From the NCBI GenBank assembly GCA_049999805.1, contig JBNGIO010005803.1, positions 1 to 44,366 on the forward strand: DNA of 44,366 nucleotides, written 5' to 3'. Both the position numbers and the translations under genes were made by a program. Under the pieces are notes generated by a model. It ran no database searches. It saw only the letters and a list, made by a program, of their open reading frames with translations, and was not told the origin of the DNA. Below, one piece after another: positions 9 through 38,635 of this stretch. The first letter of the stretch is position 1. Each line of letters begins with the position of its first letter. This DNA is from Folioceros fuciformis. Its lineage: Eukaryota.

Positions 9-2474
9 ATGGATCCAGCACGTCTGAGAAATGGGATGCTTGGGGGTGAAGTTTCCAGCGATTGTAGCCGCCAGCAGCAGCAGCAGGCGGCTTTGTGGCG
101 AAAATTTTTCCTGGACCCTGGCATGTGGTGGGATAACCGGAGGGGTGGGGAGAGCTTTGGTTCGCCTGACTTCCGATGTAAGGAGTCCAGTGAGGTCCTC
201 TGGTTAAACAGCATGTTCAAGCCTGCTTGGGTGGACGAGCGGCTCGTGTCTTTGGATATGCAGATGGGTCGAAGTTCCTCTCCTTCTAAGCCGAGCTCTT
301 TGCATAAGTCTGAGCCTGGCAGGTTTCCAGGATCGGAATTGTGTGTCGTCATGGCTGAAACCGTGAGCACCTTATGTCAGCAGTCGAAGCTGACTGAGGC
401 TGTTGGAACCTTGGAATCTCTTGTACAGACAGGCAGTCCTGTTTCTCAGTCTCTCTTCTATATTGTGTTAAAACTGTGCGCATCTAAGAAGAATCTGGTT
501 GCGGGGCGACGAGTTCATAATCTGACTGTCAAACTTGGGTACGAGTCAAATACATTTCTAGGAAACCATATTTTGCGCATGTATGCATCTGGAGGTAGGC
601 TACAGGAGGCCATGGATGTGTTCACCCGGGTGGGTCAGCCAGATGCCTTTATGTGGGTTTCTATAATTTCTGCCTATGCGAAACACGGGAAACCTAGTGA
701 GGCCATACAACTGTACCAGGAGATGCGCAACTCAGGAGTCAAGGCGACTGCTCACGTGTTTGTGGCAGCCCTTCAGGCTTGTGCATTGGCTGGGGACTTG
801 AAATCTGGCAGAGAAGTGCACTGTGATGTATTGCACAGTGGCATTCCTGCTAACGTTTTTGTTGGAAACTGCCTGGTGGGGATGTATGCAAAATGTGGGG
901 ACCTGGAAGATGCTCGCAGGGTTTTTGACAGCTTAGGCACAAAGGATATTGTGACATGGACGGCTCTGATAGCTGGGTATGCAAATCATGGGCCTGAACA
1001 ACAGGCTCTTGTTCTTTACGAACAAATGGATCAGGAGGGCCTGGTCGTTGCTGACCATGTTACTTTTGCTTGTCTTTTGAAAGCATGTGCAAGCACTGGT
1101 GCTTTACAGAAGGGCAGGGAGCTGCACTCACAAATTGTGGAAAGAGGACAGCTAGATGACATACTTGTGGGTACTTCCCTTGTAGACATGTACGCAAAGT
1201 GTGGCGAGCTGGAGGATGCACGTCGAGTTTTTGACAGCTTGGCCGCAAAAGATGTGGTGACATGGACTGCCCTGATTGCGGAGTATGCACAGCAAGGTCT
1301 CGGCCAAGAGGCACTTACTTTGTATGGACAAATGGAGCAAGAAGGCTTGATTGTGGCTGACTGTGTTACCTTTGCTTGCCTTCTCAAGGCTTGTGCTAAC
1401 GCTGGTGCCTTACAGAAGGGCCGGCAGCTGCACTCACAGATCGTGGAAAGAGGACAGCTAGATGACATAATTGTGGGCACTTGCCTGGTGGACATGTATG
1501 CAAAGTGTGGTGAACTCGAAGAGGCACAGCGTGTTTTTGACAGCTTAGCAACAAAGAATGTTGTGACATGGAATGCCCTGATAGGTGGGTGGGGCGCTTG
1601 TGATGAAGGTCGCAATGCCCTAGCTTGTTTTGAGGAGATGTTAGTCTCCGGTATTGAGCCAGATGCTACTACTTTCACTTGCGTTTTAGGGGCATGCAGT
1701 CACGGGGGACTGGTGAATGAGGGTTGCAGGCACTTCGATTCCATAGTTCAATACCATGGCATCAAGCCTACTACTGAGCATTACAATTGCATGATTGATC
1801 TTCTTGGGCGTGCAGGCCTTTTAGATGAGGCTGAGAACATGCTACTATCATGTGAGAGCCAAAGCAACCTCGTGGGGTTGACTTCTTTGTTGAATGCTTG
1901 CAAAAATCATGGGGATATAGAGAGAGCAACACGGTGTTTTGAAAGTCTCGTTAGACTTGAGCCTCAGTGTGCATCTCCGTATGTGCTCATGGCCAATGCC
2001 TACGCAGATGCAGGCCGGTGGTCTGATGTTGAAAGGATCGAAACACAGAGAATGTTAGCAGGAGCTAACAAGAAGCCTGCAGTGGCGGGCATTGAGGTGA
2101 AAAAGCAAGTACACACATTTGTGGTGGGAGAACGGAGAGATGACCTTGCTCTTCAAGTAGAGAGCACGAATGCACGTCTGAAGCAGGAAGGAGGTCACGT
2201 ACCACACACAAAGTTGGTGTTGAAGCCACTGCCTGAGAAGGAAAAGGAAGACGTGCTTTGCGGGCATGCGGAGAAGTTAGCTCTGGCTTTTGGTCTCTTG
2301 AACACTCCCAGCGGCACGCCTCTGGTGGTCACGAAAAATCTACGCATGTGTAGCGACTGTCACAATTCCACGGAGATCATGTCAAGGGTAGAAAAGAGAG
2401 ACATTGTTGTGAGGGATGGATACCGTGTGCATCGATTCGCAGCTGGTTTTTGCAGTTGTAAGGCTCGACCTTGA
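9..2474 (+). CDS. PLS-class PPR protein with E1/E2 and DYW:KP (ARP-ending) domain; candidate U-to-C RNA editing factor; N-terminus probably truncated by the window edge
   Basis: Intronless 821-aa ORF with P-L-S repeats (VVTWTALIAxY / VTFACLLKAC / LVDMYAKCG), P2-L2-S2, E domains, KKPAVAGIEV, HAEKLA, CSDCH and C-terminal CSCKARP. The frame is open upstream of base 9 and paralogues have ~45 more N-terminal residues. Confidence 0.95.
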   Translation: MDPARLRNGMLGGEVSSDCSRQQQQQAALWRKFFLDPGMWWDNRRGGESFGSPDFRCKESSEVLWLNSMFKPAWVDERLVSLDMQMGRSSSPSKPSSLHKSEPGRFPGSELCVVMAETVSTLCQQSKLTEAVGTLESLVQTGSPVSQSLFYIVLKLCASKKNLVAGRRVHNLTVKLGYESNTFLGNHILRMYASGGRLQEAMDVFTRVGQPDAFMWVSIISAYAKHGKPSEAIQLYQEMRNSGVKATAHVFVAALQACALAGDLKSGREVHCDVLHSGIPANVFVGNCLVGMYAKCGDLEDARRVFDSLGTKDIVTWTALIAGYANHGPEQQALVLYEQMDQEGLVVADHVTFACLLKACASTGALQKGRELHSQIVERGQLDDILVGTSLVDMYAKCGELEDARRVFDSLAAKDVVTWTALIAEYAQQGLGQEALTLYGQMEQEGLIVADCVTFACLLKACANAGALQKGRQLHSQIVERGQLDDIIVGTCLVDMYAKCGELEEAQRVFDSLATKNVVTWNALIGGWGACDEGRNALACFEEMLVSGIEPDATTFTCVLGACSHGGLVNEGCRHFDSIVQYHGIKPTTEHYNCMIDLLGRAGLLDEAENMLLSCESQSNLVGLTSLLNACKNHGDIERATRCFESLVRLEPQCASPYVLMANAYADAGRWSDVERIETQRMLAGANKKPAVAGIEVKKQVHTFVVGERRDDLALQVESTNARLKQEGGHVPHTKLVLKPLPEKEKEDVLCGHAEKLALAFGLLNTPSGTPLVVTKNLRMCSDCHNSTEIMSRVEKRDIVVRDGYRVHRFAAGFCSCKARP

Positions 2475-3029
2475 GAATGAAACGCATAAGGGAGGGCTCA
2501 TCATCGAGCACACGACAAGTTCGAGTTTGCGTGCTGGGCGAAGACGCAGGGAATCCATGTTAATGTCATGGGACACTCACCGAAGCAAGCGTTGCAGGGA
2601 ATGTCTCAAAACGTCGCAGATGGCCCACCGCTCATGGGGCCGCTCGGTTCCGTGAGCCACTCGGGCCTGCCTCCTGTTCCAATTCCACTTTCGGGTGCGA
2701 GCCTGTCCGCAGTGTCCGGAAGCCTGCAAGTGCTTTTCTTGCTATGAACCTCTGGGTTGGCAGTCAATGGATCATGCCCACAGGACAAAGACTTTCAGCC
2801 ACTTAACTGCCCATCAAAAAATCTTGTTTCGGAGACGAATTGTGTAGGCCCATTAGCCCCACAAGCTTCTCTGCGCTGTACTGAAATGATGTTCCCTGCT
2901 CCGAGTATTGTTCCCATCCATACGTATCTTCTCTGCTGCGCTTCTTCAGGGTGGTGTAGTCATGCATGGTACTTCAAGCCGAAGATGGGCCTGTTGTGCG
3001 TGTCATCTCAGCGAATGGGTGCCTGTTAG

Positions 3030-5933
3030 ATGGCCACTCTATGGCAGCCGAATGCCTTGTGTTCCCACCAAACCGATGGCTGTACAGCAAGTCTACGAGA
3101 AGCTCCCCCTCACCTGACCTTGGTCAATCAGCCGCTGGCGAACAGTCAAGCCTCTAGGTCCAGCAGTGTAGGGAACCCAGCAGTTCCGAGGAAATGGTTG
3201 GCAAGGGAAGGATTTTCCAAAGCTGGTGGTCATCAGGAGAAGTCCCAGGAGCTAGTGTGGCGGCGACTTATTGTGGACCCTGCCATGTGCTGGGAGAACG
3301 GGCGACGCAGGAAGAGCTCTTCTTCCCCTTGCTCCCGGCGTAAGGGGTCTGGCGATGTCCTCTGGTTAAACAACACGGTCAAGCCAGACTGGGTGGATGT
3401 GCATACGCAAACAGATCATGATGCCTCTCCTTCCAAGTCTAGCGCCTCGGACAGGTCTCCGCCTGACAGACGTGCAGGACCGGAGGAGATGGGCGTCGTG
3501 ACGGCTGCAACCTTGAGCACGTTATGTGAGCAGGAGAAGCTTGATGAGGCCGTTGAAGCCCTGGAATCTCTGGCGCAGACAGAGTTTCCTATCCCTCAGT
3601 TTCTCATTTACAATGTGCTAAAACTGTGTGCAGCTAAGAAGGATCTGCGTGTAGGGCGACGAGTTCATGATATCACTATCAAGCTTGGGTACGAGTCGAA
3701 TACATACTTGGCGAACCATATCTTACGCATGTATGCAAGTGGAGGTAGGCTGCAGGAGGCCATGGATGTGTTCACCAGAATGGACAAACCAGATGTGTTC
3801 ATGTGGATTTCCATAATCTCTGCCCATGCCAAACATGGGCAACCTAGTGTGGCTATACGACTGTACCATGAGATGCGTAGCTCAGATGTGAAGGCTAATG
3901 CGTACGTCTTTGTTGCAGCTCTTCAAGCTTGTGCATTTGCTACCGACTTGGATTCGGGCAAACAAGTGCACTGTGACGTGTTGAACAGTGGCATTGCACC
4001 TAACTTGTTTGTTGGCAGCTGCCTCGTGGACATGTATGCCAAATGCGGCGCACTGGGCGATGCACACAGGGTTTTTGACAGTCTGGCCTCGAAGGACGTG
4101 GTTACATGGAACGCCCTGATAGGTGGGTATGCGAATCAGGGACTCGAGCAAGAGGCGCTTGTACTGTATGAGCAAATGGAGCAGGAGGGCCTGATTGTGA
4201 GTAGTCCTGTCACTTTTGCTTGCCTTCTGAAGGCTTGTGCAAGCACTGGTGCCTTGCAGACGGGCAGGCAACTGCACTCGCAGATAGTGGAAAGAGGACA
4301 GCTAGATGACATACTTGTCGGCACTGGCCTGGTAGATATGTATGCAAAGTGTGGTGAACTGGAAGAAGCACGCAGAGTTTTTGACAGCTTGTCTGCAAAA
4401 AATGTGGTGACATGGACAGCTCTAATTGCCGGGCATGTACAGCAAGGTCTTGGCCAGGAGGCTCTTGTCTTGTACGAGAAAATGGAGCAGGAAGGCCTGA
4501 TTGTGGGTAATCACGTTACTTACGCTTGCCTTCTGAAGGCTTGTGCAAGTGCCGGTGACTTGCAGAAGGGCAAGCAGCTGCACTCTCAGATCGTGGATAG
4601 GGGGCAGTTGGGTAGTTTACTTGTGAGCACTTGCCTGGTAGACATGTATGCAAAGTGTGGCGAATTGGAAGAGGCACGCAGAGTTTTTGACAGCTTGGCC
4701 ACAAAAAACGTGGTGACATGGACAGCCCTGATTGCCGGGTATGCACAGCAAGATCTCGGCTACGAGGCACTTGTTCTGTATGGTCAAATGGAGCAGGAGG
4801 GCCTCATAGTGCCTGATTCTGTCACTTTTGTTTGCCTTCTCAAGGCCTGTGCTAGCTCCGGTGCCTTGCAGAAGGGCAGGCAGCTGCACTCACAGATCGT
4901 GGAAAGAGGACAGTTGGATACCAACATACTTGTGGGCAACTCCCTGGTGGACATGTATGCAAAATGTGGTGCCCTGGAAGACGCTCGCCGGGTTTTTGAC
5001 AGCCTGGCCACCAAGGACGTGGTGACATGGAACGCCCTGATAGCTGGGTTTGGTGCCTGTGATGAAGGTCACATGGCATTAGCCTGTTTCGAGGAGATGT
5101 TAGCTGCCGGTATCCAGCCTAATGACGCCACTTTTTCTTGCCTTCTAGTTGCGTGCGGTCATGCTGGACTGGTGAATGAGGGTCGCAAGCACTTCGATTC
5201 CATGTTGGAACAGCATGGCGTGAAACCTACCAGTGAGCATCACAATTGCATGATTGATCTACTCGGGCGGGCAGGTCATCTAGAGGAGGCAGAAACCTTG
5301 TTATTAGCCTGTGAGAGCGGAAGCAACGTGGTGGGGTTGACGTCTTTGCTGAATGCCTGCAAATGTCATGGAGACGTTGAAAGGGCTGCATGGTGTTTTG
5401 AACGTCTGGTTAGGCTGCAGCCTCACGGTGCATCCGCATACGTTCTGATGGCGAACGTCTACGCGGACGCAGGTAGGTGGGCCGATGTATCCCGGACCGA
5501 AACACACCGAGTAGTAGCAGGCGCTACCAAGAAACCAGCAGCGGCGACCGTCGAGGTGAAGAAGCAAGTACACACGTTTGTGGTAGGAGAAAGAAGAGAC
5601 GACCTTGCTCTTCAAGTAGAGAGCACGAATGCTCGTCTGCAGCAGGAGGGGGGCCACGTGCCACGCACCAAGTTGGTGTTGAAGCCACTTTCCGAGGAGG
5701 AGAAGGAAGACGCTCTTTGCGGGCATGCTGAGAAGCTGGCTTTGGCGTTTGGTCTCTTGAATACTCCCAGTGGCACACCTCTGGTGGTAACGAAGAATCT
5801 ACGCATGTGCAGTGACTGCCACAGTTCCACGGAGATCATGTCACGGATCGAAAAGAGAGACATTGTTGTAAGGGATGGGTACCGTGTGCATCGATTCGCA
5901 GCTGGCTCTTGTAGTTGTGACGGTCGACCGTGA
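3030..5933 (+). CDS. PLS-class PPR protein with DYW:KP (GRP) domain
   Basis: 967-aa intronless ORF starting MATLWQP; three 36-35-31 aa triplets; KKPAAATVEV, HAEKLA, CSDCH, ends CSCDGRP. Confidence 0.95.
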   Translation: MATLWQPNALCSHQTDGCTASLREAPPHLTLVNQPLANSQASRSSSVGNPAVPRKWLAREGFSKAGGHQEKSQELVWRRLIVDPAMCWENGRRRKSSSSPCSRRKGSGDVLWLNNTVKPDWVDVHTQTDHDASPSKSSASDRSPPDRRAGPEEMGVVTAATLSTLCEQEKLDEAVEALESLAQTEFPIPQFLIYNVLKLCAAKKDLRVGRRVHDITIKLGYESNTYLANHILRMYASGGRLQEAMDVFTRMDKPDVFMWISIISAHAKHGQPSVAIRLYHEMRSSDVKANAYVFVAALQACAFATDLDSGKQVHCDVLNSGIAPNLFVGSCLVDMYAKCGALGDAHRVFDSLASKDVVTWNALIGGYANQGLEQEALVLYEQMEQEGLIVSSPVTFACLLKACASTGALQTGRQLHSQIVERGQLDDILVGTGLVDMYAKCGELEEARRVFDSLSAKNVVTWTALIAGHVQQGLGQEALVLYEKMEQEGLIVGNHVTYACLLKACASAGDLQKGKQLHSQIVDRGQLGSLLVSTCLVDMYAKCGELEEARRVFDSLATKNVVTWTALIAGYAQQDLGYEALVLYGQMEQEGLIVPDSVTFVCLLKACASSGALQKGRQLHSQIVERGQLDTNILVGNSLVDMYAKCGALEDARRVFDSLATKDVVTWNALIAGFGACDEGHMALACFEEMLAAGIQPNDATFSCLLVACGHAGLVNEGRKHFDSMLEQHGVKPTSEHHNCMIDLLGRAGHLEEAETLLLACESGSNVVGLTSLLNACKCHGDVERAAWCFERLVRLQPHGASAYVLMANVYADAGRWADVSRTETHRVVAGATKKPAAATVEVKKQVHTFVVGERRDDLALQVESTNARLQQEGGHVPRTKLVLKPLSEEEKEDALCGHAEKLALAFGLLNTPSGTPLVVTKNLRMCSDCHSSTEIMSRIEKRDIVVRDGYRVHRFAAGSCSCDGRP

Positions 5934-13097: not shown

Positions 13098-16000
13098 TCA
13101 GGGTCGGCCCTTACAACTGCAACAACCTGCTTCGAATCGATGCACACGGTACCCATCTCTTACAACGATGTCCCTCTGCTCAACCCTTGACATGATCTCG
13201 GTAGACCTGTGGCAGTCACTACACATGCGTAGATTCTTCGTCACCACTAAAGGTGTGCCACTCGGAGTGTTCAAGAGACCAAACGCCAGAGCTAGCTTCT
13301 CAGCATGCCCACAAAGCGCATCTTCCTTTTCCTTCTCAGACAGTGGCTTCAAAACCAACTTCGTGTGTGGAACGTGTCCTCCTTCCTGCTTCAGACGTGC
13401 ATTTGTGCTCTCTACTTGGAGAGCCAGATCATCTCTTCGTTCTCCCACCACAAATGTGTGTACCTGCTCCTTCACCTCAATGCCCGCCACGGCAGGTTTT
13501 TTGTTGGCTCCTGCTACTATTCTCTGTCTTTCGATCCTATCTACATCGGCCCACCTACCTGCATCCGCATACGCATTGGCCATGAGCACATATGGGGACG
13601 CACTCTGAGGCTCCAGCCTTACAAGACTTTCAAAACACTTTGTCGCCCTCTTTAAATCTCCGTGACTTTTGCAGGCATTCAGCAAAGACATAAACCCCAC
13701 AACATTGCTTTGGCTTTCACATGACAATAGCGTGCTCTCTGCCTCATCTAAATGGCCTGCACGCCCAAGAAGATCAATCATGCAATTGTAATGCTCGACA
13801 GTGGGTTTGATGCCATGCTGTTCAAACATGGAATCAAAGTACTTACGACCCTCGTTCACCAGTCCTGCATGACTGCATGCTACCAAAAGGCAAGTGAAAG
13901 TTGCATCATCAGGCTGGATGCCATCGACCAACATCTCCTCAAAGCAAGCTAGTGCGCTGTGCCCCTCATCACAAGTACCACACCCAGCTATCAGGACATT
14001 CCATGTCACCACATTTTTTGTCGCCAAGTTGTCAAAGACTCTGCGCGCGTCTTTAAGTTTGCCACATTTTGCATACATGTCCACCAGGCAAGTGCCCACA
14101 AGTGTGTTATCCAGCAGTCCTATTTCCACAATCTGAGAGTGCAGCTGCCTACCTTTCTCTAAGGCACCAGCAGTGGCACAGGCCTTGAGAACGCAGGCAA
14201 AAGTAACATGGTTACCAACAATAAGGCCTTCCTGCTCCATTTGGTCGTAGACAACAAGCGCCTCTTGCCCAAGCCCCTGATTTGCATACCCAGCTATAAG
14301 AGACGTCCATGTCACCACATCCTTTGTGGCCAAGCTGTCAAACACCCTGCGTGCGTCTTCCAGTTCGCCACATTTTGCGTACATGTCCACCAAACAGTTG
14401 GCCACCAGTCTGTTATCTAGCTGTCCTCTTTCCACGATCTGTGAGTGCAGCTCTCTGCCCTTCTGCAAGGCACCTGAGCTTGCGCAGGCCTTCAGAAGGC
14501 AAGCAAAGGTTACATGGTTACTGACGATAAGCCCTTCCTCCTCCATTTGTTCGTGTAGTTTGAGTGCGTCTTCTCCAAGTCCATGGTTCGCATACCCAGC
14601 TATCAGGGACGTCCATGTCACCACATCCTTTATAGCCAAGTTTTCAAATACCTTGCGTGAATCCCCCAGCTCGCCACATTTTGCGTACATGTCCACCAGG
14701 CAGTTGCCCACCAATAAGTTATCCAGCTGTCCTCTCTCCACAATCTGCGAATGGAGCTGCCTTCCCTTCTGCAAGGCACCAGCGCTTGCACAGGCCTTCA
14801 GAAGGCAAGCGAAAGTAACATGGTTACAAACCATCCAGCCCTCCTGCTCCATTTTCTCGTACAGAAAAAGTGCCTCCTGACCAAGACCTTGCTGTGCATA
14901 CCCAGCAATCAGAGCCGTCCATGTCACAACATCCTTTTTGGTGAGGCTGTCAAAAACGCGACGTGCATCTTCCAATTCGCCACACTTTACATACATGTCC
15001 ACCAGGCAAGTGCCCACAAGCACGCTATCTAGCTGTCCTCTATCTACAATCTGTGAATGCAGCTGCCTGCCCTTTCGTAAGTCAGCAGCACTTGCACACG
15101 CCTTCAGAAGGCAAGCAAAAGTTACGTGGTTTCCCACAATAAGGCCCTCCTCCTCCATTTGTCCATACAGAACAAGCGCCTCCTGGCCGAGGCCATGATC
15201 TGCATAGCCAGCAATCAGGGCCGTCCATGTCACCACATCCTTGGTAACCAAGCTTTCAAAAACCCTGCGTGCATCTTGCAGTTCACCGCACTTTGCATAC
15301 ATGTCCACGAGGCAGTTGCCGATGAACACGTTAGGAGGAATGCCACTGTGCACAACATCGCTGTGAACTCTTCTCCCAGATTTCAAGTCCACCGCAGCTG
15401 CACATGCTTGAAGGGCTGCTACAAAGACATGAGCATCCGCCTTCACACCCGAGCTTCGCATCGCATGGTACAGTTCGATGGCCTCGCGGGGTTTCCCATG
15501 TCTGGCATGAGCAGAGATTATGGAAAACAACATAAAGGCATCTGGTTTGCCATTCCTGATGAACACATCCATGGCCTCTTCTAGTCTACCTCCATACGCA
15601 TACATGCGCAAGATATGGTTCCCCAAAAATGTACTCGATTCGTAACCATGTTCAACAATGAGATCATGAACTCGTCGCCCCGCAACCAGATCCTTCCTAC
15701 CTGCGCACAGTTTTAGCACAGCATAGAACAGAGACTCAGATATAGGACGGTCGGTTTGGGCCAGACATTCCAGGGCCCCCACGGCCTCAGTGAGCTTCCC
15801 CTGCTCACATAACGAGCCCACGATTACAGGCGTGACGACGCCCGTTCTTGATCCTGCACACCTACCAGCCCCAGGCTTATCCGGAGGTCTCGACGTGGAA
15901 GGAGATGTGCCGTCATCCACCTGCATATCCAAGGAAACCAGCTGCTTATCCACCCAAGCTGGCTTGAACATGCTGTTTAACCAGAGGAGCTCACCAGACC

Positions 16001-16316
16001 CTTTACGTCGGAAGTCAGGCGAACCAGAGCTCTTCTTATCTCGCCTGTTATCCCACCACATTGCAGGGTCCAGAAAGAACTGTCGCCACAGCAGCTCCTG
16101 TTCCTGCTCATTGCGGCTACCGTGGCTGGAAAATCCGTCCGCGGCAGCCCAATCTGTCGCAAGTGTTGTGTCCCTTACACTGTTGCACCTGGAGGACTGG
16201 TAGCTTGCCAGAGCTTGACTACCATAAGTGAGATGGGTGGGAGCTCGTGGTAGAAGCCCAGTAGCTCCACCGATTTGCTGGGTCCGCAACGGATCCAATT
16301 GCGATACGTTGCCCAT
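13098..16316 (-). CDS. PLS-class PPR protein with DYW:KP (GRP) domain
   Basis: Intronless ORF. The track start at 16352 is a TTG; the ATG at 16316 (MGNVSQLDPL) aligns with paralogue starts. Four triplets; KKPAVAGIEV, HAEKLA, CSDCH, ends CSCKGRP. Confidence 0.95.
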   Translation of the reverse strand: MGNVSQLDPLRTQQIGGATGLLPRAPTHLTYGSQALASYQSSRCNSVRDTTLATDWAAADGFSSHGSRNEQEQELLWRQFFLDPAMWWDNRRDKKSSGSPDFRRKGSGELLWLNSMFKPAWVDKQLVSLDMQVDDGTSPSTSRPPDKPGAGRCAGSRTGVVTPVIVGSLCEQGKLTEAVGALECLAQTDRPISESLFYAVLKLCAGRKDLVAGRRVHDLIVEHGYESSTFLGNHILRMYAYGGRLEEAMDVFIRNGKPDAFMLFSIISAHARHGKPREAIELYHAMRSSGVKADAHVFVAALQACAAAVDLKSGRRVHSDVVHSGIPPNVFIGNCLVDMYAKCGELQDARRVFESLVTKDVVTWTALIAGYADHGLGQEALVLYGQMEEEGLIVGNHVTFACLLKACASAADLRKGRQLHSQIVDRGQLDSVLVGTCLVDMYVKCGELEDARRVFDSLTKKDVVTWTALIAGYAQQGLGQEALFLYEKMEQEGWMVCNHVTFACLLKACASAGALQKGRQLHSQIVERGQLDNLLVGNCLVDMYAKCGELGDSRKVFENLAIKDVVTWTSLIAGYANHGLGEDALKLHEQMEEEGLIVSNHVTFACLLKACASSGALQKGRELHSQIVERGQLDNRLVANCLVDMYAKCGELEDARRVFDSLATKDVVTWTSLIAGYANQGLGQEALVVYDQMEQEGLIVGNHVTFACVLKACATAGALEKGRQLHSQIVEIGLLDNTLVGTCLVDMYAKCGKLKDARRVFDNLATKNVVTWNVLIAGCGTCDEGHSALACFEEMLVDGIQPDDATFTCLLVACSHAGLVNEGRKYFDSMFEQHGIKPTVEHYNCMIDLLGRAGHLDEAESTLLSCESQSNVVGFMSLLNACKSHGDLKRATKCFESLVRLEPQSASPYVLMANAYADAGRWADVDRIERQRIVAGANKKPAVAGIEVKEQVHTFVVGERRDDLALQVESTNARLKQEGGHVPHTKLVLKPLSEKEKEDALCGHAEKLALAFGLLNTPSGTPLVVTKNLRMCSDCHRSTEIMSRVEQRDIVVRDGYRVHRFEAGCCSCKGRP

Positions 16317-17575: not shown

Positions 17576-20479
17576 TCAAGGTCGACCTTTGCAAGTGCAG
17601 CGACCCCCTGCAAATCGATGCACCCGGTACCCATCCCTCACAACAATGTCTCTCTTTTCAACCCTTGACATTATCTCAGTGGAACTGTGGCAGTCACTGC
17701 ACATGCGGAGATTCTTCGTTACCACCAGAGGTGTGCCACTAGGGGTGTTCAAGAGACCAAACGCCAGAGCTAGCTTCTCAGCATGCCCACAAAGCGCATC
17801 TTCCTTTTCCTTCTCAGACAGTGGCTTCAAAACCAACTTCGTGTGTGGTACGTGGCCCCCTTCCTGTTTCAGACGTGTACTTGTGCTCTCTGCTTGAAGA
17901 GCAAGATCGTCTCTGTTCTCTCCTACCACAAATGTATGTACCTGCTTGTTCACCTCAATGCCCGCCACGGCAGGTTTTTTGTTGGCTCCGGCTACTATTC
18001 TCTGTCTTTCAATCCTATCTACATCGGTCCACCTACCTGCATCTGCATATGCATTGGCCATGAGCACATATGGGGATGCACTCTGAGGCTCCAGTCTAAC
18101 GAGCCTTTCAAAACACCACCTCGCCCTCTCTAGATCTCCATGATTTTTGCAGGCAGTCAGCAAAGATGTAAACCCCACAACATTGCTTTGGCTCTCGCAT
18201 GATAATAGCATGTTCTCTGCCTCATCCAAATGGCCTGCACGCCCAAGGAGATCAACCATGCAATTGTAGTGCTCCACGGTAGGTTTGACTCCATGCTGTT
18301 CAACCATGGAATCGAAATACTGGCGACCCTCTTTCACCAGACCCTCGTGACTGCAAGCTAGTAAAAGGCAAGTAAAGGTAGCATCATCAGGCTGAACACC
18401 AGCAGATAACATATCTTCAAAACAAGATACTGCGTTGTGACCTTCATCACAAGTACCACACCCACCTATAAGGGCATTCCATGTGACCACGTTCTTTGTG
18501 ACCAAGCTGTCAAAAACCTGGCGAGCATCCTCTAATTCTCCACATTTTGCATACATGTCCACCAGACCAGTGCCCACAATGATGTTATTATCTAACTGTC
18601 CTCTTTCCACAATCTGTGAGTGCAGCTGCCTGCCCTTCTGTAAGGCACCAGCACTAGCACAGGCCTTCAGGAGGCAAGCAAAAGTGACATGGTTCGCTAC
18701 AACCAGGCCCTCCTCCTCCATTTGTCCGTACAGAGCAAGCGCCTCTTGGCCGAGCCCATGCTGTGCATATCCAGAAATCAGGGTATTCCATGTCACCACA
18801 TCTTTTGTGCCTAAGCTGGCGAAAACCTGGCGTGCATCAGCCAGTTCGCCAAATTTTGCATACATATCCACCAAGCAGTTACCCACAAGTATTTTACCAA
18901 GCTGTCCTCGTTCAACAATCTTTAAATGCAGCTGCCTGCCCTTATTCACAGCACCCGCGTTTGCACAGGCCTTCAGAAGACAAGCAAAAGTAACCTCGTC
19001 CGCCACAATCAGGCCCTCCTGCTCCATTTCTTCGTACAACACGAGCGCCTGTTGGCCGTAACCTTGCTGCGCAAACCCAGCAATCAAGGTCGTCCATGTC
19101 ACTACATCCTTCACGGGCATGTTGTCAAAAACCTGGCGTGCATCTTCCAGTTCACCACATTTTACATACATGTCCACGAGTGAGTTGCCTACAAGTACGT
19201 TATCTACCTGTCCACTGTCTACGACCTGTGAGTGCAGCTGCCTGCCCTTCTGTAAGGCACCAGCGCTCCCACAGGCCTTCAGAAGGCAAGCGAAAGTAAC
19301 ATGGTTGCCCACAATCAGGCCTTCCTCCTCCATTTGACCATACAGGACAAGTGCCACTTGGCCCAGACCATGATTAGCGTATCCACATATCAGGGCCGTC
19401 CATGTGACAACATCCTTAGTGACCAAGCTGTCAAAAACCCTGCGTGCATCTTCCAGTTCGCCGCATTTCGCATACATGTCCACCAGGCAGTTGCCGACAA
19501 ACAAGTTAGGGGGGATGCCACTAGCCAAGAGATCATGGTGCACCTTCCTGCCAGATTCCAAGTCCGTGGCAAATGCACAAGCTTGAAGGGCTGCCACAAA
19601 GACGTGAGCATCTGCCTTCAGACCTGACATACGCATCTCATGGTAGAGTTGTATGGCTCGAACAGGTTTCCCGTGCTTAGCATGAGCGGAGATGATGGAA
19701 AACCACATGAAGACATTTGGTCTGCCAACCCTGGTGAACACATCCATGGCCTCCTGTAGCCTACCTCCATACGCATACATCCGCAATAAGTGGTTCCCCA
19801 CATAGGCATTTGACTCGTACCCAAGTTTGACAGTGAGATCATGGACTCTCCGCCCCACAGCCACGTCCTTCTTAGCTGCACACAGTTTCAGCACAGTGTA
19901 TAAGAGAGTTTGGGGAACAGGACAGTTCGCCTGCGCCAGAGAGTCCAGGGCCCCTACGGCCTCAGCAAGCTTCCCCTGCCGACAGAAATTTCTCACGGTC
20001 ACTGCCGTCACGATGCCCGTTTCCAGTTCCGCACTCCTGCTAAGCTCACAAGCATCCAGAGAATGGAGCCCGGAAGGAGAGTCACCTTGACCCAGATGCA
20101 TATCCAAACTAACGAGATGCTCATCCACCCAAGGCGGCTTGAACACGCTGTTTAACCAGAGAACCTCGTCGGACCCCTTACGCCGGAAGTCAGGCGACCG
20201 AGCGCTCTTCTTACTTCGCCTGTTATCCCACCACATGCCAGGGTGCAGGAAAAGTTGCCGCCACAAGATCTCCTGCTCCTGCTCCTGCTCCTGCTCCAGC
20301 CCCTGGCGACCACCATCGCTAGAAAACCTTCCCCCGGCTACCCACTTGCTCGGAGGTCCTGAGTTTCCCAGACTGCTGCGACTGGAGGATTGCGTGTTTG
20401 CTAGAGTTCCTGCTACAGTCTCTGTGCATCCACCAATGTGTTGGGTCCACACCGGACTTGGTTGCCATAGTCTGGCCAT
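17576..20479 (-). CDS. PLS-class PPR protein with DYW:KP (GRP) domain
   Basis: 967-aa intronless ORF starting MARLWQP; three triplets; KKPAVAGIEV, HAEKLA, CSDCH, ends CTCKGRP. Confidence 0.95.
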   Translation of the reverse strand: MARLWQPSPVWTQHIGGCTETVAGTLANTQSSSRSSLGNSGPPSKWVAGGRFSSDGGRQGLEQEQEQEQEILWRQLFLHPGMWWDNRRSKKSARSPDFRRKGSDEVLWLNSVFKPPWVDEHLVSLDMHLGQGDSPSGLHSLDACELSRSAELETGIVTAVTVRNFCRQGKLAEAVGALDSLAQANCPVPQTLLYTVLKLCAAKKDVAVGRRVHDLTVKLGYESNAYVGNHLLRMYAYGGRLQEAMDVFTRVGRPNVFMWFSIISAHAKHGKPVRAIQLYHEMRMSGLKADAHVFVAALQACAFATDLESGRKVHHDLLASGIPPNLFVGNCLVDMYAKCGELEDARRVFDSLVTKDVVTWTALICGYANHGLGQVALVLYGQMEEEGLIVGNHVTFACLLKACGSAGALQKGRQLHSQVVDSGQVDNVLVGNSLVDMYVKCGELEDARQVFDNMPVKDVVTWTTLIAGFAQQGYGQQALVLYEEMEQEGLIVADEVTFACLLKACANAGAVNKGRQLHLKIVERGQLGKILVGNCLVDMYAKFGELADARQVFASLGTKDVVTWNTLISGYAQHGLGQEALALYGQMEEEGLVVANHVTFACLLKACASAGALQKGRQLHSQIVERGQLDNNIIVGTGLVDMYAKCGELEDARQVFDSLVTKNVVTWNALIGGCGTCDEGHNAVSCFEDMLSAGVQPDDATFTCLLLACSHEGLVKEGRQYFDSMVEQHGVKPTVEHYNCMVDLLGRAGHLDEAENMLLSCESQSNVVGFTSLLTACKNHGDLERARWCFERLVRLEPQSASPYVLMANAYADAGRWTDVDRIERQRIVAGANKKPAVAGIEVNKQVHTFVVGENRDDLALQAESTSTRLKQEGGHVPHTKLVLKPLSEKEKEDALCGHAEKLALAFGLLNTPSGTPLVVTKNLRMCSDCHSSTEIMSRVEKRDIVVRDGYRVHRFAGGRCTCKGRP

Positions 20480-25790: not shown

Positions 25791-25837
25791 AGACTCTGAC
25801 AAATCTCTAGTTGGATAGTTCGTGATGACCAGAGCAA

Positions 25838-27035: not shown

Positions 27036-29948
27036 TCATGGTCGACCTTTACATGTGCAACAACCACCTGCAAATCGATGCACTCTGTACCCATCCCTCA
27101 CAACAATCTCCCTCTTTTCAACTCTTGACATGATCTGTGTGGAACTGTGGCAGTCACTGCACATGCGGAGGTTCTTCGTTACCACCAGAGGTGTGCCAGT
27201 GGGAGTGTTCAACAGACCAAACGCAAGAGCTAGCTTCTCAGCATGCCCGCAAAGAGCATCTTCCTTCTCCTTCTCAGAGAGTGGCTTCAAAGTGAGCTTC
27301 GTGTTTGGTATGTGGCCCCCATCCTGCTTCATTCGTGCATTTGTGCTCTCTATTTGAAGAGCAAGATCGTCTCTTCGTTCTCCCACCACAAATGTATGTA
27401 CCTGCTTGTTCACCTCAATCCCGGCTACAGCAGGTTTCTTGCTAGCTCCTACCAACAATCTCTGTGCTTCAATCCTATCTACGTCACTCCACCTACCTGC
27501 ATCTGCATACGCATTGGCCATGAGCACGTACGAGGATGCACTCTGAGGTTCCAGTCTAACGAGACTTTCAAAACATCGCGTGGCTCTATCGATATCCCCG
27601 TGACTTCTGCAGGCGTTCAGCAAAGACTTCAACCCCACAACATTGCTTTGGCTCTCACATAATCGTAGCATCGTCTCTGCCTCATCTAAATGGCCTGCAC
27701 GCCCAAGAAGATCAACCATGCAGTTGTAGTGCTCTACAGTAGGTTTGATGCCATGCTGTTCGACCATGGAGTCAAAGTACTTGCGACCCTCATTCACAAG
27801 TCCTCCGTGACTGCATGCTACTAACAGGCAAGTGAAGGTGGCATCATCAGGCTTCGTGCCGGCAATTAGCATGTCCTCAAAACAGGCCAGCGCATCGTGA
27901 GCCTCATCACAGAGACCACAACCACCTATCAGGGAGTTCCACGTCACCACATCCTTCGTGGCCAAGCTGTGGAAAACCCGACATGCATCTTCCACAGCGC
28001 CACACTTTGCATACATGTCCACCAGGGAGTTGCCCACCAGTACGCTATCCAGCTGCCCTCTTGCCACAATTTGCGAGTGCAGCTGCCTGCCATTTTGTAA
28101 TGCACCAGCGCCTGCACAAGCATTGAGAAGGCAAGCGAAAGTAACATGGTCACCCACAATCAGACCTTCCTGGTCCATTTCTCCATACAGAACAAGTGCC
28201 TCCTCACCAAGACCTTGCTGTGCATACCCTGCAATCAGGGCTGTCCACGTGACCAAATTTTTTGTAGACAAGCTGTCAAAAACCCTGCGAGCTTCCTCCA
28301 GTTCCCCACATTTTGCATACATATCTACTACGCAAGTCCCCACGATTATGTTATCTAGCTGTCCTCTTTCCACAAGCTGTAAGTGCAGCTGCCTGCCCTT
28401 CTGCAAGGCACCAGCACTTGCACACGCCTTCAGAACGCAAGCAAAAGTGACCTCGTCAGCCACAATCAGACCTTCGCGCTCCATTTGGCCGTACATGTCA
28501 AGCGCCTCCTGCCCGAGGCCTTGCTGTGCATACCCTGCAATCAGGGCATTCCATGTGACAATATCCTTCGAGGCCAAGCTGTCAAACACATGGCGGGCAT
28601 CTTCCAGTTCACCACATTTCACATACATGTCAACCAGGCAGTTGCCGACGAGTACGTTATCTACCTGTCCCCTTTTCACAATCTGTGAGTGCAGCTGCCT
28701 GCCCTCGTACAAGGCACCAACACTTGCACATGCCTTCAGAAGGCAGGCAAAAGTCACATGGTCAGCCACAACCAGGCACTGCTGCTCCATTTGTCCATAC
28801 AGAACAAGCGCCTCTTGGCCCAAACCGTGTTTTGCATACCCAGCGATCAGGGAAGTCCATGTCACAACATCCTTAGTTACCAAGCTGTCAAAAACCCTAC
28901 GTGCATCTTCCAGTTCGCCACATTTTGCATACATATTCACCAGGCAGTTGCCAACAAACAAGCTAGGAGGCATGCCACACTCCCACACATCACGGTGCAC
29001 TCTTCTGCCCGATTCCAAGTCCCCACATGACGCACAAGCCTGAAGCGTTGCGACAAAGATGTGCGCATCTGCCTTTACTCCTGAGCTACGCATTTCTTGG
29101 TACAGTTGCACAGCCACATTGGGTCTCCCTAGTTTCGCATTGGCGGAGATGATGGAATACCAAGTGAAGACACTTGGCCTGCCAACTCTGGTGAACACAT
29201 CCATGGCCTCCGGTAGCCTACCTCCAAATGCATACATACGTAAGATATGATTCCCCACATATGAATCTGACTCGTAGCCAAGCGTGACGATGAGATCATG
29301 AACTCGTCGCCCCAAAACAACATCCTTCTTAACCGCACAAAGCTTCAACACACTACAACAGAGAGAACGAGAGATACGAAAGTCTGCCTGCGCCAGAGAT
29401 TCCAAAGCTCCAACGGCCTCTGGAAGCTTCCCCTGTTGACAAAAAGTGCTTACTGTTGCAGCCGTTACCACGCCCATCTCCGATCCTGCACGCCTGCCAG
29501 GCTCAGGCTTATTCAAAAAGCTCCACTTGGAAAGAGAGGCACCAGAACCCATCTGCATATCCAAAGAAACCAGCTTCCCATCCACCCATGCTGGCTTCCA
29601 CGTGCTGTTTAACCAGAGAACCTCGTCGGACTCCTTGCACCGAAAGTCTGGCGAATCTGAGCTCTTCTTGCCTACTCTGTTATCCCACCACATGGCCGGG
29701 TCCAGAAAAAATCGTCGCCACAAGAGCTCCTGCTCCTGCCCCTGCCCATCTTTATCGGTGGACAATACTTCCCCAGCCATACATTTGCTTGAAGATGCGG
29801 AGCTTCTTACACTGCTGCACCGACACGCTTGGCTGCTCGCCAGAGGTTGTCTCCATAACGTTGAGTGACCAGGAGCTCCAGGTAGAATCCGTGTACACTC
29901 ACCAGTTTGTTGGGCCCATGACGGATCAGCTGGCCACACTTTGGCCAT
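27036..29948 (-). CDS. PLS-class PPR protein with DYW:KP (GRP) domain
   Basis: 970-aa intronless ORF starting MAKVWPADP; three triplets; KKPAVAGIEV, HAEKLA, CSDCH, ends CTCKGRP. Confidence 0.95.
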   Translation of the reverse strand: MAKVWPADPSWAQQTGECTRILPGAPGHSTLWRQPLASSQACRCSSVRSSASSSKCMAGEVLSTDKDGQGQEQELLWRRFFLDPAMWWDNRVGKKSSDSPDFRCKESDEVLWLNSTWKPAWVDGKLVSLDMQMGSGASLSKWSFLNKPEPGRRAGSEMGVVTAATVSTFCQQGKLPEAVGALESLAQADFRISRSLCCSVLKLCAVKKDVVLGRRVHDLIVTLGYESDSYVGNHILRMYAFGGRLPEAMDVFTRVGRPSVFTWYSIISANAKLGRPNVAVQLYQEMRSSGVKADAHIFVATLQACASCGDLESGRRVHRDVWECGMPPSLFVGNCLVNMYAKCGELEDARRVFDSLVTKDVVTWTSLIAGYAKHGLGQEALVLYGQMEQQCLVVADHVTFACLLKACASVGALYEGRQLHSQIVKRGQVDNVLVGNCLVDMYVKCGELEDARHVFDSLASKDIVTWNALIAGYAQQGLGQEALDMYGQMEREGLIVADEVTFACVLKACASAGALQKGRQLHLQLVERGQLDNIIVGTCVVDMYAKCGELEEARRVFDSLSTKNLVTWTALIAGYAQQGLGEEALVLYGEMDQEGLIVGDHVTFACLLNACAGAGALQNGRQLHSQIVARGQLDSVLVGNSLVDMYAKCGAVEDACRVFHSLATKDVVTWNSLIGGCGLCDEAHDALACFEDMLIAGTKPDDATFTCLLVACSHGGLVNEGRKYFDSMVEQHGIKPTVEHYNCMVDLLGRAGHLDEAETMLRLCESQSNVVGLKSLLNACRSHGDIDRATRCFESLVRLEPQSASSYVLMANAYADAGRWSDVDRIEAQRLLVGASKKPAVAGIEVNKQVHTFVVGERRDDLALQIESTNARMKQDGGHIPNTKLTLKPLSEKEKEDALCGHAEKLALAFGLLNTPTGTPLVVTKNLRMCSDCHSSTQIMSRVEKREIVVRDGYRVHRFAGGCCTCKGRP

Positions 29949-33215: not shown

Positions 33216-33377
33216 CTGTAGACCTGCTTGTCTACACGCCTCGGAACGGCCCAGTGGCCGGGGCCTCACCTTGTTATGTAAAGTCTTGGATAGAGATATG
33301 CATATGACACCCGCCACTTCCCCGATGTCTCCAAAAGGAATTTTCTATATAGGAGCTTGTATAACGAGCCTATTTCT

Positions 33378-33507: not shown

Positions 33508-34175
<668 letters not shown>

Positions 34176-35404: not shown

Positions 35405-38400
35405 TCAGGGCCGACCCTTACAGCTGCAAGCACCAGCAGCAAATCGGTGCACTCGATACCCATCCCTTACAACGATGTCTCTCTTTTCAACCCTTGACAT
35501 GATCTCCGTAGAACTGTGGCAGTCGCTGCACATGCGCAAATTCTTCGTTACCACCAGAGGTGTGCCACTCGGAGTATTCAAGAGACCAAACGCCAGAGCT
35601 AGCTTCTCGGCATGCCCGCAAAGCGCATCTTCCTTCTCCTTCTCCGACAGGGGCTTCAAAACCAACTTTGTGTGTGGTACGTAGCCCCCTTCTTGCTTCA
35701 GACGTGCATTTGTGCTCTCTACTTGGAGAGCAAGATCATCTTTTCGCTCTCCCACAGTAAATGTATGTACCTGGTTCTTCACTTCAATGCCCGCCACTGC
35801 AGGTTTCTTGTTAGCTCCTGCTACCTTCCTCTGTGTTTCAATCCGTTGTACATCAGTCCACCTACCTGCATCTGCATAGGTATTGGCCATGAGTACATAT
35901 GCAGATGCCCCCTGAGGGTCTAGTCCGACGAGACTTTCAAAGCACCGGGTTGCCCTCTCTACATCCCCGTGATTTTTGCAGGAATTCAGCAAAGAAGTCC
36001 AACCCACAACATCGCTTTGGCTTTCACACGATAACAGCATGTTCTCTGCCTCGTCTAAACTGCCTGCACGCCCGAGAAGATCGATCATACAATTGTAATG
36101 CTCAGTCGTAGGTTTGATGCCATGCTGTTCGACCATGGAATCGAAGTACCTGCGACCCTCCTTCACCAGTCCCTCATGACTGCATGCTGCTAAAAGGCAA
36201 GTGAAAGTAGCATCATCTGGCTCAATACCAGCAACTAACATTTCCTCAAAGCAAGCTAGTGCGCCGTGACCTTCATCACAAGAACCACACCCACCTATCA
36301 AGGCATTCCATGTCACCACATTTTTTGTTGCCAAGCTGTCGAAGACCTCGCGTGCATCTTCCAGTTCACCACACTTTGCATACATGTCTATCAGGCACGT
36401 GCCCACAAGTATGCTATCCAGCTGTCTACTTTCTATAATCTGTGAGTGTAGCTGTCTGCCCTTATGTAAGGCGCCAGCACCTGCACAGGCTTTCAGAAGG
36501 CATGCAAAAGTAACCTCGTCAGCCACCGTGAGGCCCTCCTGCTCCATTTGTTCATACAGCACAAGCGCCTCTTGGCTGAGATCTTGTTGTGCATACCCAG
36601 CAATCAGGGTTGTCCATGTCACCACATCCTTTGCATTCAAGCTGTCAAAAACCTGGCGTGCTTCCTCCAATTCGCCACATTTTGCATACATGTCCACCAG
36701 GCAAGTGCCTACAAGCATGTGATCCAGCTGTCCCCTTTCCACAATCTGTGTGTGCAGCTGCCTGCCCTTCTGTAAGGCACCGGTGCTTGCACATGCTTTC
36801 AGAAGGCAAGCAAAAGTCACATGGTTACCTAGAATCAGGCCCTCCTGCTCCATTTGTTCATGCAGAACCAGCGCCTCCTTACCAAGTCCGTGATTTGCGT
36901 ACCCCGAAATCAGGGCAGTCCAAGTCACCACATTTTTCGTAGTCAACCTGTCAAAAACTCCGCGCGCTTCTTCCAGTTCGCCACACTTCGCATACATGTC
37001 TACCAGGGAAGTTCCAACAAGCATGTTATCGAGCTGTCCTCTTTCTACAACTAGTGAATGCAGCTGCCTGCCCCCCTGTAAACAACCAGTAATTGCACAA
37101 GCTTTGAGAAGGCAAGCAAAAGTGATATGGTTGCCTACGATCAAGCCCTCCTGCTTCATTAGTCCATACAGAACAAGCGCCTCTTGCCCGAGCCCATGAT
37201 TTACATATCCAGCTATCAGGGCATTCCACGTAACAACATCCTTTGTGACCAAGGCGTCAAAAACTCGACGCGCATCTTGAAGTTCACCACACTTTGCATA
37301 CATGTCCACCAGGCAAGTGCCCACAAGCATGTTCTGTAGGTGCCCTCTTGCTATAATCTGAGAATGCAGATGCCTCCCCTCGTGTAAGGCACCAGTTATT
37401 GCACAGGCTTTGAGAAGGCAAGCAAAAGTGACATGATTGCCCACAATCACGCCCTCCTGCTCCATTTGTCCGTACAAAACAAGCGCCTGTGGTCCCATCC
37501 CATGATTTGCATACCCAGATATCAGAGAATTCCACGTTACCACATCCTTTGTAGCCAAGCTGTCGAACACCCTGCGTGCATCTTCCAGTTCGCCACATTT
37601 TGCATACATGTCCACCAGGCAGCTGCCAACAAACAAGTTAGGAGGAATGCCACTATGCAACACATCACAATGCACTTTTCTGCCAGATTCCAAGTCCGCA
37701 ACGGATGCACAAGCTTGAAGCACTGCCACAAAGACATGAGGATTCGCCTTCACACCTGAGCTACGCATCTCATGGTACAGTTGTATGGCCTCATTAGACT
37801 TCCCATGTTTAGCATGAGCAGAGATAATGGAAAACCACATGAAGGCATCTGGTTTGCCCATCCTGGTGAACACATCCATGGCCTCTTGAAGCCTACCTCG
37901 ACATGCATACATGCGTAAGATATGGTTTCCCACGATTGTATTTGACTCGTACCCAAGTTGAACAGTGAGATAATGAACTCGCCGCCCCATAGCCACATCC
38001 TTCTTGGCTGCACATAATTTTAGCACTGTACAGAACAGAGTCTGAGAAATAGGAGAGTCCGTCTGGGCCAAAGCTTCCAGAACTCCGACGGCCTCCGTAA
38101 GCTTTCCCTGCTGACACAACGTGTTCACTGTTGCAGGTGTTACGGCGCTCATTTCCGCTCCTGTACGCCTGCCAGGTTCAGGCTTGTCCAGAGAGGTCCA
38201 TTTGGAAGTAAAGGAAGCATGCCCCATCTTTCTATCCAACGAAAGTAGCTGCTTACCAGCCCAAGCTGGCTTGAATGTGCTGTTTAGCCAGAGTACATCG
38301 CCAGACCCCTTGCGCCGGAAGTTAGGCGAGCGAGTACTCTTTTCAACTCCTCTGTTAGCCCTCCACCTCGCAGGGTCCAGAAAATACTGTCGCCACAACG

Positions 38401-38635
38401 ACTCCTCCTCCCGTTCCTGTTCATGCTCCTGGCGACTGACATCGCTAGAAAATCCTTCCCTAGCCATCCATGATGTCGGAAGTGCTAATTTCTTTACACT
38501 GCTGCACCTGGAGGGCTGGTTGTTTGCCACCGACTGCCTCCCTGAAGTGAGGTGAGCGGGAGCTGCTGGTCGAATCCGTGTACAGCCACCGATTTGTTCT
38601 ATACACAAGGGATCCGGTTGCCATACTGTGGCCAT
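35405..38635 (-). CDS. PLS-class PPR protein with DYW:KP (GRP) domain
   Basis: 1076-aa intronless ORF starting MATVWQPDPL; four triplets; KKPAVAGIEV, HAEKLA, CSDCH, ends CSCKGRP. Confidence 0.95.
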   Translation of the reverse strand: MATVWQPDPLCIEQIGGCTRIRPAAPAHLTSGRQSVANNQPSRCSSVKKLALPTSWMAREGFSSDVSRQEHEQEREEESLWRQYFLDPARWRANRGVEKSTRSPNFRRKGSGDVLWLNSTFKPAWAGKQLLSLDRKMGHASFTSKWTSLDKPEPGRRTGAEMSAVTPATVNTLCQQGKLTEAVGVLEALAQTDSPISQTLFCTVLKLCAAKKDVAMGRRVHYLTVQLGYESNTIVGNHILRMYACRGRLQEAMDVFTRMGKPDAFMWFSIISAHAKHGKSNEAIQLYHEMRSSGVKANPHVFVAVLQACASVADLESGRKVHCDVLHSGIPPNLFVGSCLVDMYAKCGELEDARRVFDSLATKDVVTWNSLISGYANHGMGPQALVLYGQMEQEGVIVGNHVTFACLLKACAITGALHEGRHLHSQIIARGHLQNMLVGTCLVDMYAKCGELQDARRVFDALVTKDVVTWNALIAGYVNHGLGQEALVLYGLMKQEGLIVGNHITFACLLKACAITGCLQGGRQLHSLVVERGQLDNMLVGTSLVDMYAKCGELEEARGVFDRLTTKNVVTWTALISGYANHGLGKEALVLHEQMEQEGLILGNHVTFACLLKACASTGALQKGRQLHTQIVERGQLDHMLVGTCLVDMYAKCGELEEARQVFDSLNAKDVVTWTTLIAGYAQQDLSQEALVLYEQMEQEGLTVADEVTFACLLKACAGAGALHKGRQLHSQIIESRQLDSILVGTCLIDMYAKCGELEDAREVFDSLATKNVVTWNALIGGCGSCDEGHGALACFEEMLVAGIEPDDATFTCLLAACSHEGLVKEGRRYFDSMVEQHGIKPTTEHYNCMIDLLGRAGSLDEAENMLLSCESQSDVVGWTSLLNSCKNHGDVERATRCFESLVGLDPQGASAYVLMANTYADAGRWTDVQRIETQRKVAGANKKPAVAGIEVKNQVHTFTVGERKDDLALQVESTNARLKQEGGYVPHTKLVLKPLSEKEKEDALCGHAEKLALAFGLLNTPSGTPLVVTKNLRMCSDCHSSTEIMSRVEKRDIVVRDGYRVHRFAAGACSCKGRP

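Follow-up and report, generated by a model that had tools for sequence, protein, structure and literature searches.

A cluster of pentatricopeptide repeat genes with GRP-subtype DYW:KP domains in the hornwort Folioceros fuciformis: probable U-to-C editing factors with an N-terminal PDF-type motif

DYW:KP domains are a class of deaminase-like domains that stand at the C-terminus of pentatricopeptide repeat (PPR) proteins. They are recognized by KP in place of PG, a catalytic His followed by Ala or Cys, C-terminal triplets that vary, Met92, and a conserved Lys88 (PMC9478123, PMC11845758). They comprise 132-133 residues and are devoid of xHP (PMC9478123, PMC11845758); the DYW form that retains xHP has a length of 136 amino acids (PMC9478123). 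Two hornwort subgroups of DYW:KP are distinguished, GRP and DRH, and the GRP subgroup has Glu for the PG-type Lys103 (PMC9478123, PMC11845758). The present study deals with a cluster of genes for proteins of this kind in the hornwort Folioceros fuciformis. The DNA analysed, referred to as the window, is the whole stretch of 44,366 nucleotides (nt) from position 1 to position 44,366 of contig JBNGIO010005803.1 (assembly GCA_049999805.1), forward strand.

Organellar U-to-C editing occurs in hornworts, lycophytes, and ferns. The activity of this enzyme class is known from consensus designs. In E. coli, KP2 and KP3, which were derived from GRP proteins, show U-to-C editing of about 26% and 22%, respectively, and no C-to-U editing was detected (PMC9478123). 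The K88A replacement abolishes U-to-C editing in KP2, KP3, and KP6 and shifts the activity towards C-to-U (PMC11845758). It has also been reported that the edited RNA becomes crosslinked to the protein, and an enzymatic lysine has been proposed as the nitrogen donor (PMC11332814; PMC11845758). KP enzymes may be consumed in the reaction (PMC11332814). A preliminary description of the window had presented such domains as accepted candidates for U-to-C editing whose chemistry and amino donor are poorly understood. This view is out of date, as KP2 and KP3 edit U-to-C and Lys88 is both essential and the proposed donor (PMC9478123, PMC11845758, PMC11332814). This is a described class whose chemistry has been elucidated in part, and the genes of the window are additional members of it.

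The listing of open reading frames (ORFs) contains six long intronless PLS-class PPR ORFs, located on both strands of the window and named here P1 to P6, and a search of the window by tblastn with the six proteins adds a seventh copy of the same family.

P1, 9..2474, + strand: PLS-E-DYW:KP gene, 821 amino acids (aa) in the window, 5 PLS triplets, C-terminus ARP
P2, 3030..5933, + strand: PLS-E-DYW:KP gene, 967 aa, 6 PLS triplets, C-terminus GRP
P3, 13098..16316, - strand: PLS-E-DYW:KP gene, 1072 aa, 7 PLS triplets, C-terminus GRP
P4, 17576..20479, - strand: PLS-E-DYW:KP gene, 967 aa, 6 PLS triplets, C-terminus GRP
P5, 27036..29948, - strand: PLS-E-DYW:KP gene, 970 aa, 6 PLS triplets, C-terminus GRP
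P6, 35405..38635, - strand: PLS-E-DYW:KP gene, 1076 aa, 7 PLS triplets, C-terminus GRP
Seventh copy, about 30438-32540, + strand: pseudogene of the same PPR family

All six proteins match the Pfam models PPR, E_motif, and DYW_deaminase, the last with E values from 5e-33 to 8e-32. The frame of P1 is open to base 1 of the window, and the first Met that it has in the window corresponds to a site near residue 47 in the other copies. It is therefore probable that the true start of P1 is not at base 9 and that the left edge of the window cuts off its N-terminus. The seventh copy is considered a pseudogene because stops interrupt all three of its frames many times and, in comparison with P5 (74% DNA identity), it has an 811-nt deletion, further frame-breaking indels, and five stops in the P5 frame. 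Remnants of the KP box, of HAE, and of the N-terminal PDF motif discussed below are still readable in it, with a stop inside the PDF motif. The ORF listing, Pfam, and tblastn thus agree with the earlier account of six intact genes and one pseudogene, arranged in both orientations among housekeeping genes.

The class of the proteins is given by their C-terminal domains, which are located as follows.

P1 DYW:KP domain, 2073..2471, + strand, 133 aa
P2 DYW:KP domain, 5532..5930, + strand, 133 aa
P3 DYW:KP domain, 13101..13499, - strand, 133 aa
P4 DYW:KP domain, 17579..17977, - strand, 133 aa
P5 DYW:KP domain, 27039..27437, - strand, 133 aa
P6 DYW:KP domain, 35408..35806, - strand, 133 aa; the copy used for modelling

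In the six-way alignment and in the alignment to the canonical synthetic PPR-DYW protein 9kfx (E 1.2e-57), the position of the PG box is occupied by KPAVAG (KPAAAT in P2); KP is present in all six copies and the Trp is absent. HSE is changed to HAE in every copy, and FHHF to VHRF. The C-terminal triplet is GRP in five proteins and ARP in P1. The differences from canonical DYW noted in the preliminary description (KP box, lost Trp, HAE, VHRF, and the GRP or ARP end) are confirmed by these alignments. Its statement that SHP is missing holds insofar as all six domains have 133 aa rather than 136 and no HP at the aligned site, but the exact site of the deletion is alignment-dependent, since HMMER placed the three-residue gap about 20 residues downstream of the SHP position. 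Met92 and Lys88 are found in all six domains, and the numbering of Lys88 is consistent with that of Met92. At the position of the DYW:PG Lys103, five domains have Glu and P5 has Gln. H65, E67, K88, C93, and C96 are invariant across 40 aligned KP domains.

Database comparison and phylogeny lead to the same class. The C-terminal region has 99 database matches, of which the best (identity 72-61%) terminate in GRP or DRH, and the best named ones belong to lycophytes and ferns; the identity of the DYW domain itself to the nearest GRP database proteins is 67-74%. A quick maximum-likelihood tree (IQ-TREE) was computed from 101 DYW domains with supports from the Shimodaira-Hasegawa-like approximate likelihood ratio test (SH-aLRT). 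P0074 and P0082 were dropped for their odd length and P0099 was left out; P0096 and P0099 are without HxE...CxxCH. In this tree, all six domains of the window group in a single clade (SH-aLRT 100), which is nested in a clade with four GRP-ending database matches (SH-aLRT 98) beside the DRH sequences. GRP and DRH sequences fall within a KP clade of 35 members (SH-aLRT 95), and the PG sequences are placed outside. Since the six paralogs form one clade, the motifs that they have in common are not six independent coincidences. On alignment and phylogeny, the domains are classified as DYW:KP of the GRP subtype. The assignment to DYW:KP made in the preliminary description is in this way borne out by the tree, in which they group with KP and not with DYW:PG.

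The fold was predicted for the P6 domain. The AlphaFold2 model has a predicted local distance difference test score (pLDDT) of 87.4. It superposes on 9kfx with a template modelling (TM) score of 0.88 and a root-mean-square deviation of 1.9 Å, and on OTP86 with a TM score of about 0.8 (0.80 for 7o4f). In the model, the domain has the cytidine-deaminase-like fold of the solved DYW domains.

The closest described systems are the hornwort GRP DYW:KP proteins and the designs KP2 and KP3, with which the window proteins have in common the KP box, HAE, Met92, Lys88, and the length of 133 aa (PMC9478123). The hornwort GRP proteins likewise have Glu at the PG-Lys103 site, the GRP end, and the PLS-E1-E2 organization (PMC9478123). 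Unlike KP2 and KP3, the window proteins are encoded by natural genes and carry an N-terminal PDF motif, which is not mentioned in the available text of PMC9478123. Hornwort DYW:KP proteins of the DRH subtype have the same KP marks and form a neighbouring group in the tree, but they end in another C-terminal triplet and have Lys, not Glu, after CxxCH. Canonical DYW:PG proteins (OTP86, 7o4e/7o4f; 9kfx) are similar in the fold (TM 0.8-0.88), the HxE...CxxC zinc core, the active-site Lys, and the PLS-E arrangement. In contrast to them, the window domains have KP for PG, no Trp, HAE, three residues fewer, and no DYW end. The reaction direction reported for the KP designs is opposite to that of canonical DYW:PG.

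The rest of each protein has the architecture of an organelle editing factor. The order is presequence, 63-residue motif, PLS triplets, E1 and E2, and the 133-residue DYW domain, and the other copies have 74-77% protein identity to P1 in the alignment. The presequence is poor in acidic residues and has a length of 71-79 residues, or 28 in the truncated P1; it is likely an organelle transit peptide. Each PLS triplet is made of repeats of 35/36, 35/36, and 31 aa. There are 5-7 triplets per protein, including P2-L2-S2, followed by E1 and E2, so that the PLS-class editing-factor layout (P-L-S triplets, P2-L2-S2, E1, E2) is found in six proteins. At the DNA level, the triplets appear as a 306-nt tandem period with 2.3-4.4 copies and 76-79% identity, located as follows.

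P1 array of the 306-nt period, 882-1584
P2 array of the 306-nt period, 4009-5038
P3 array of the 306-nt period, 13982-15314
P4 array of the 306-nt period, 18471-19500
P5 array of the 306-nt period, 27928-28952
P6 array of the 306-nt period, 36297-37640

The differences in length between paralogs correspond to whole triplet units. Because the paralogs vary by whole 306-nt units, unequal crossing-over is suggested as the route to altered tract length. A 342-aa ORF antisense to the P5 repeats (28015-29043, + strand) is most likely a by-product of the repeat composition.

The RNA specificity of PPR proteins depends on residue 5 and the last residue of each repeat. T with D specifies G, T or S with N specifies A, N with D specifies U, N with S specifies C, and N with N specifies C or U. 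The nucleotides predicted from the P and S repeats at positions -18, -16, -15, -13, -12, -10, -9, -7, -6, and -4 are the following.

P1: ? U ? U G G G A U Y
P2: ? G C A A A G U Y Y
P3: A G A U A U A A U Y
P4: ? U A U G U Y A U Y
P5: ? U G U U A G U U Y
P6: Y G Y A A G G A U U

No two paralogs are identical in code, and across the 15 paralog pairs 1-6 of the 10 code pairs are in common. Of 274 pairwise comparisons, 121 (0.44) show a difference at residues 5 and last, versus 0.27 at the other repeat positions (Fisher p = 2e-9), where the register is counted from the C-terminus over unequal numbers of triplets and some of the repeats compared may be non-orthologous. Such divergence at the predicted specificity positions fits different targets.

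Considering the homology to the assayed consensus designs KP2 and KP3, the function most likely served by these proteins is U-to-C editing at distinct organelle sites, and we regard it as probable. The nuclear genes would give rise to organelle RNA editing factors of the PLS class with a GRP-subtype DYW:KP domain. The PLS triplets with E1 and E2 would, according to the PPR code, use residues 5 and last to read the RNA upstream of the target, and Lys88 would attack C4 of the uridine, as may be expected from KP2 and KP3. Old local duplication would have produced the seven copies, with whole 306-nt triplet units gained or lost. The specificity positions would then have diverged with the catalytic domain nearly fixed. 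Because of this divergence beside a near-constant catalytic domain, the six intact copies most likely serve different U-to-C sites.

Several points weigh against this interpretation. Natural DYW:KP proteins were without an activity assay as of 2025 (PMC11845758), and in the available hornwort literature since 2020 no test of a natural GRP protein was found. The designer enzymes in bacteria end as an RNA-protein crosslink and not as free C (PMC11332814). Lys88 and the HxE/CxxC residues are common to C-to-U enzymes, so that no residue seen proves the direction of editing. Within the cluster, P1 has the ARP end and P5 has Gln at the Glu position, and the register of the code comparison belongs among these points. 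The notion of site-specific editors, put forward in the preliminary description, is plausible in that no two paralogs have the same PPR code, but the targets and the U-to-C activity of the six proteins are inferred. The probable RNA run X3 is available as contigs only and covers 27 of the 30 bins of the window, non-coding stretches included; with such coverage, transcription of the PPR genes is neither demonstrated nor excluded.

The shared catalytic core is also the starting point of the explanation that comes next in probability, namely that the proteins are C-to-U or dual-direction editors despite their KP-type domain. The fern-type design KP6 also performs C-to-U editing, KP designs become C-to-U editors when Lys88 is replaced, and a small number of substitutions alters the direction (PMC11845758); moreover, HxE, CxxC, and Lys88 are common to DYW:PG. 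However, the designs derived from GRP proteins, KP2 and KP3, edit U-to-C with undetectable C-to-U activity in E. coli (PMC9478123), Lys88 is kept in six of six window proteins, and their domains are placed deep in the KP clade. C-to-U or dual-direction editing is hence regarded as unlikely. Natural full-length GRP-type genes are potential test material for the native reaction, as the assays so far have been carried out on consensus designs. The present set is well suited in this regard, as it consists of six paralogs whose catalytic domains are nearly identical and whose predicted specificities differ.

The age of the cluster bears on whether all copies are functional. DNA identity between paralogs is 75-83% and is limited to the coding region apart from short flanks, the similarity extending about 15-40 nt upstream of each gene. 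P4 and P5 also have in common a similar 3′ flank of about 330 nt (17239-17575 and 26710-27035). Rates of synonymous (dS) and nonsynonymous (dN) substitution were estimated by the Nei-Gojobori method for the 15 paralog pairs. Pairwise dS spans a full range of 0.29-1.15, and the means by region are given below.

PDF motif: mean dS 0.68, dN/dS 0.31
N-terminal repeats: mean dS 0.67, dN/dS 0.24
P2-E2: mean dS 0.76, dN/dS 0.16
DYW: mean dS 0.62, dN/dS 0.09

Because dS reaches from 0.29 to 1.15, DNA identity is just 75-83%, and one copy is dead, the cluster is by these estimates old; it is kept by purifying selection and is not now expanding. The preliminary description had called it locally expanding, and the same values speak instead for an old maintained cluster. 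Hornwort genomes contain 1,583-2,308 PPR genes each, which arose mostly by dispersed duplication (PMC13386178). A local cluster is therefore a less common mode of duplication in hornworts, yet not remarkable. It illustrates how the family diversifies by local duplication, gain and loss of whole triplets, and faster change of the specificity residues.

With gene numbers of this size, turnover is expected, and the copies might be redundant or decaying duplicates without individual function, or non-catalytic RNA binders. Indeed, one of the seven copies is already a pseudogene and the PDF motif of P2 has lost signature residues. Yet the other six frames are intact despite divergence at a dS of about 0.4-1.1, the dN/dS of the DYW domain is 0.09, the zinc ligands and catalytic residues are all invariant, and the PPR codes differ between copies. 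General decay or loss of catalysis is thus very unlikely, and U-to-C editing by the six intact copies is still the preferred explanation.

A further feature of the U-to-C editing candidates is the 63-residue motif that separates the presequence from the first PPR repeat. A single copy of this PDF-type motif occurs in each of the six intact proteins, and a broken form in the pseudogene.

P1 PDF-type motif, 84..272, + strand, 63 aa
P2 PDF-type motif, 3246..3434, + strand; signature degraded, P-C-S for P-D-F
P3 PDF-type motif, 15912..16100, - strand, 63 aa; the copy used for modelling
P4 PDF-type motif, 20087..20275, - strand
P5 PDF-type motif, 29544..29732, - strand
P6 PDF-type motif, 38219..38407, - strand; P-N-F for P-D-F

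No Pfam model matched the motif when the N-terminal region was scanned at E up to 10, and a word-based homolog search with the motif among shorter proteins gave no match. A HMMER profile of the six motifs, run against 1.84 billion representative proteins, retrieved 543 at E <= 0.001, of which 121 had E <= 1e-10. Many of the 543 matched proteins have an SSB domain and carry 2-13 C-terminal copies of the motif. The Pfam SSB domain was above the cut-off in two of ten sampled matches, with the motif copies C-terminal to SSB, and one match is annotated as OSB1, mitochondrial-like, of Populus nigra. Comparison of the motif profile with this Populus OSB1-like protein by hhalign gave a probability of 98.3%, an E value of 1.4e-14, and 50% identity over 58 columns. 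The aligned region corresponds to residues 294-351 of 371, that is, the C-terminal PDF motif of the Populus protein. By this profile comparison, the N-terminal motif is a homolog of the OSB PDF motif. The latter has about 50 residues and is reported to be sufficient for single-stranded DNA binding in AtOSB1 (PMC6963530, PMC4166229). OSB proteins have an OB-fold/SSB domain followed by at least one PDF motif at the C-terminus, up to many copies. The window proteins differ from them in that a single N-terminal motif is followed by the PPR array and the deaminase-like domain; no SSB/OB-fold Pfam match was found in any of the six, and they are not members of the OSB family.

The combination is not limited to this locus. 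With a hidden Markov model of the triplet, 15 of the 150 best motif matches were recognized as PPR proteins, and in each of them 1-3 motif copies precede the repeats on the N-terminal side. The named PDF-PPR proteins come from Ceratopteris, Adiantum, Pteridium, Selaginella, and Diphasiastrum. Among the 99 DYW matches, many of which may be N-terminally incomplete in the database, the motif was found in four: two GRP proteins, one DRH protein, and one canonical DYW:PG protein from the liverwort Calypogeia.

The model of the P3 motif has a pLDDT of 93.6 and predicts three short strands between two helices. Foldseek found no match to it in the PDB at E <= 0.001, and the best Z obtained with VIA-align over 48,161 chains was 3.1, which is not proof of a new fold. 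In the ESM Atlas, the best score for the motif region was 0.80, on phage clusters; this is the noise level and the candidate was discarded.

A description linking the PDF motif to PPR proteins was not found in the literature search, which did not cover the original PDF paper and the two primary KP papers, and the available text of a 2026 survey of domain fusions in editing factors makes no mention of PDF-PPR. The fusion is the one feature here that may be new. It is possible, and is proposed here tentatively, that a subset of PLS editing factors of non-seed land plants carries an OSB-type PDF motif N-terminal to the PPRs, perhaps as a functional module for single-stranded DNA or the nucleoid. 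The motif would probably add unspecific binding of single-stranded nucleic acid or association with the nucleoid, although this is speculative. If it is functional, editing factors would be coupled to single-stranded nucleic acid or to the nucleoid, and editing on nascent transcripts, or a boost of affinity for very long PPR tracts, would be conceivable. If it is also undescribed, the PDF-PPR fusion would constitute a new accessory module in the editing factors of plants.

That the PDF motif makes the proteins act mainly on organelle DNA, in OSB-like nucleoid or recombination control with the PPR-DYW part secondary, is the least probable explanation: the motif is a homolog of the PDF motif of OSB proteins, itself reported to be sufficient for single-stranded DNA binding in AtOSB1 (PMC6963530), but no OB-fold/SSB domain was matched in Pfam, the motif is the least constrained part of the proteins (dN/dS 0.31) and is degraded in P2, and most of each protein has the standard editing-factor architecture.

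Four spliced ordinary genes sit between the PPR copies.

Inosine-uridine nucleoside hydrolase, exons within 6797-7993, - strand, spliced
Acyl-ACP thioesterase, 22330-24296, - strand, spliced
Ribosomal protein uS8/S15a, from about 33418, + strand, spliced
Integrator subunit 7, 39054-43320, - strand, spliced

A spliced X3 contig covers 33525-33639, 33743-33900, and 34073-35498 of the uS8/S15a gene (+ strand), with a GT..AG intron at 33640-33742. This contig runs on over the final 94 nt of P6, a convergent gene, and the 3′ ends of the two genes may overlap. Another X3 contig, identical to the window, lies over the 5′ end of P6 (37898-38797). An identical contig of 1601 nt (31713-33313) comprises the 3′ part of the pseudogene together with the 770 nt downstream of it, and may reflect either transcription of the pseudogene or carry-over of DNA.

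No Rfam match was obtained across the whole window. ORFs of 70-120 aa are present on the + strand at 9936-10384, where the DNA is richer in AT (GC 0.39 at 8-10 kb). The ORF of 120 aa (9936-10295, + strand) has no Pfam match, and the neighbouring ORF of 70 aa is located at 10175-10384. At 25167-26166, short tandem repeats with periods of 24-104 nt surround 10 N at 26110-26119, which probably mark an assembly gap.

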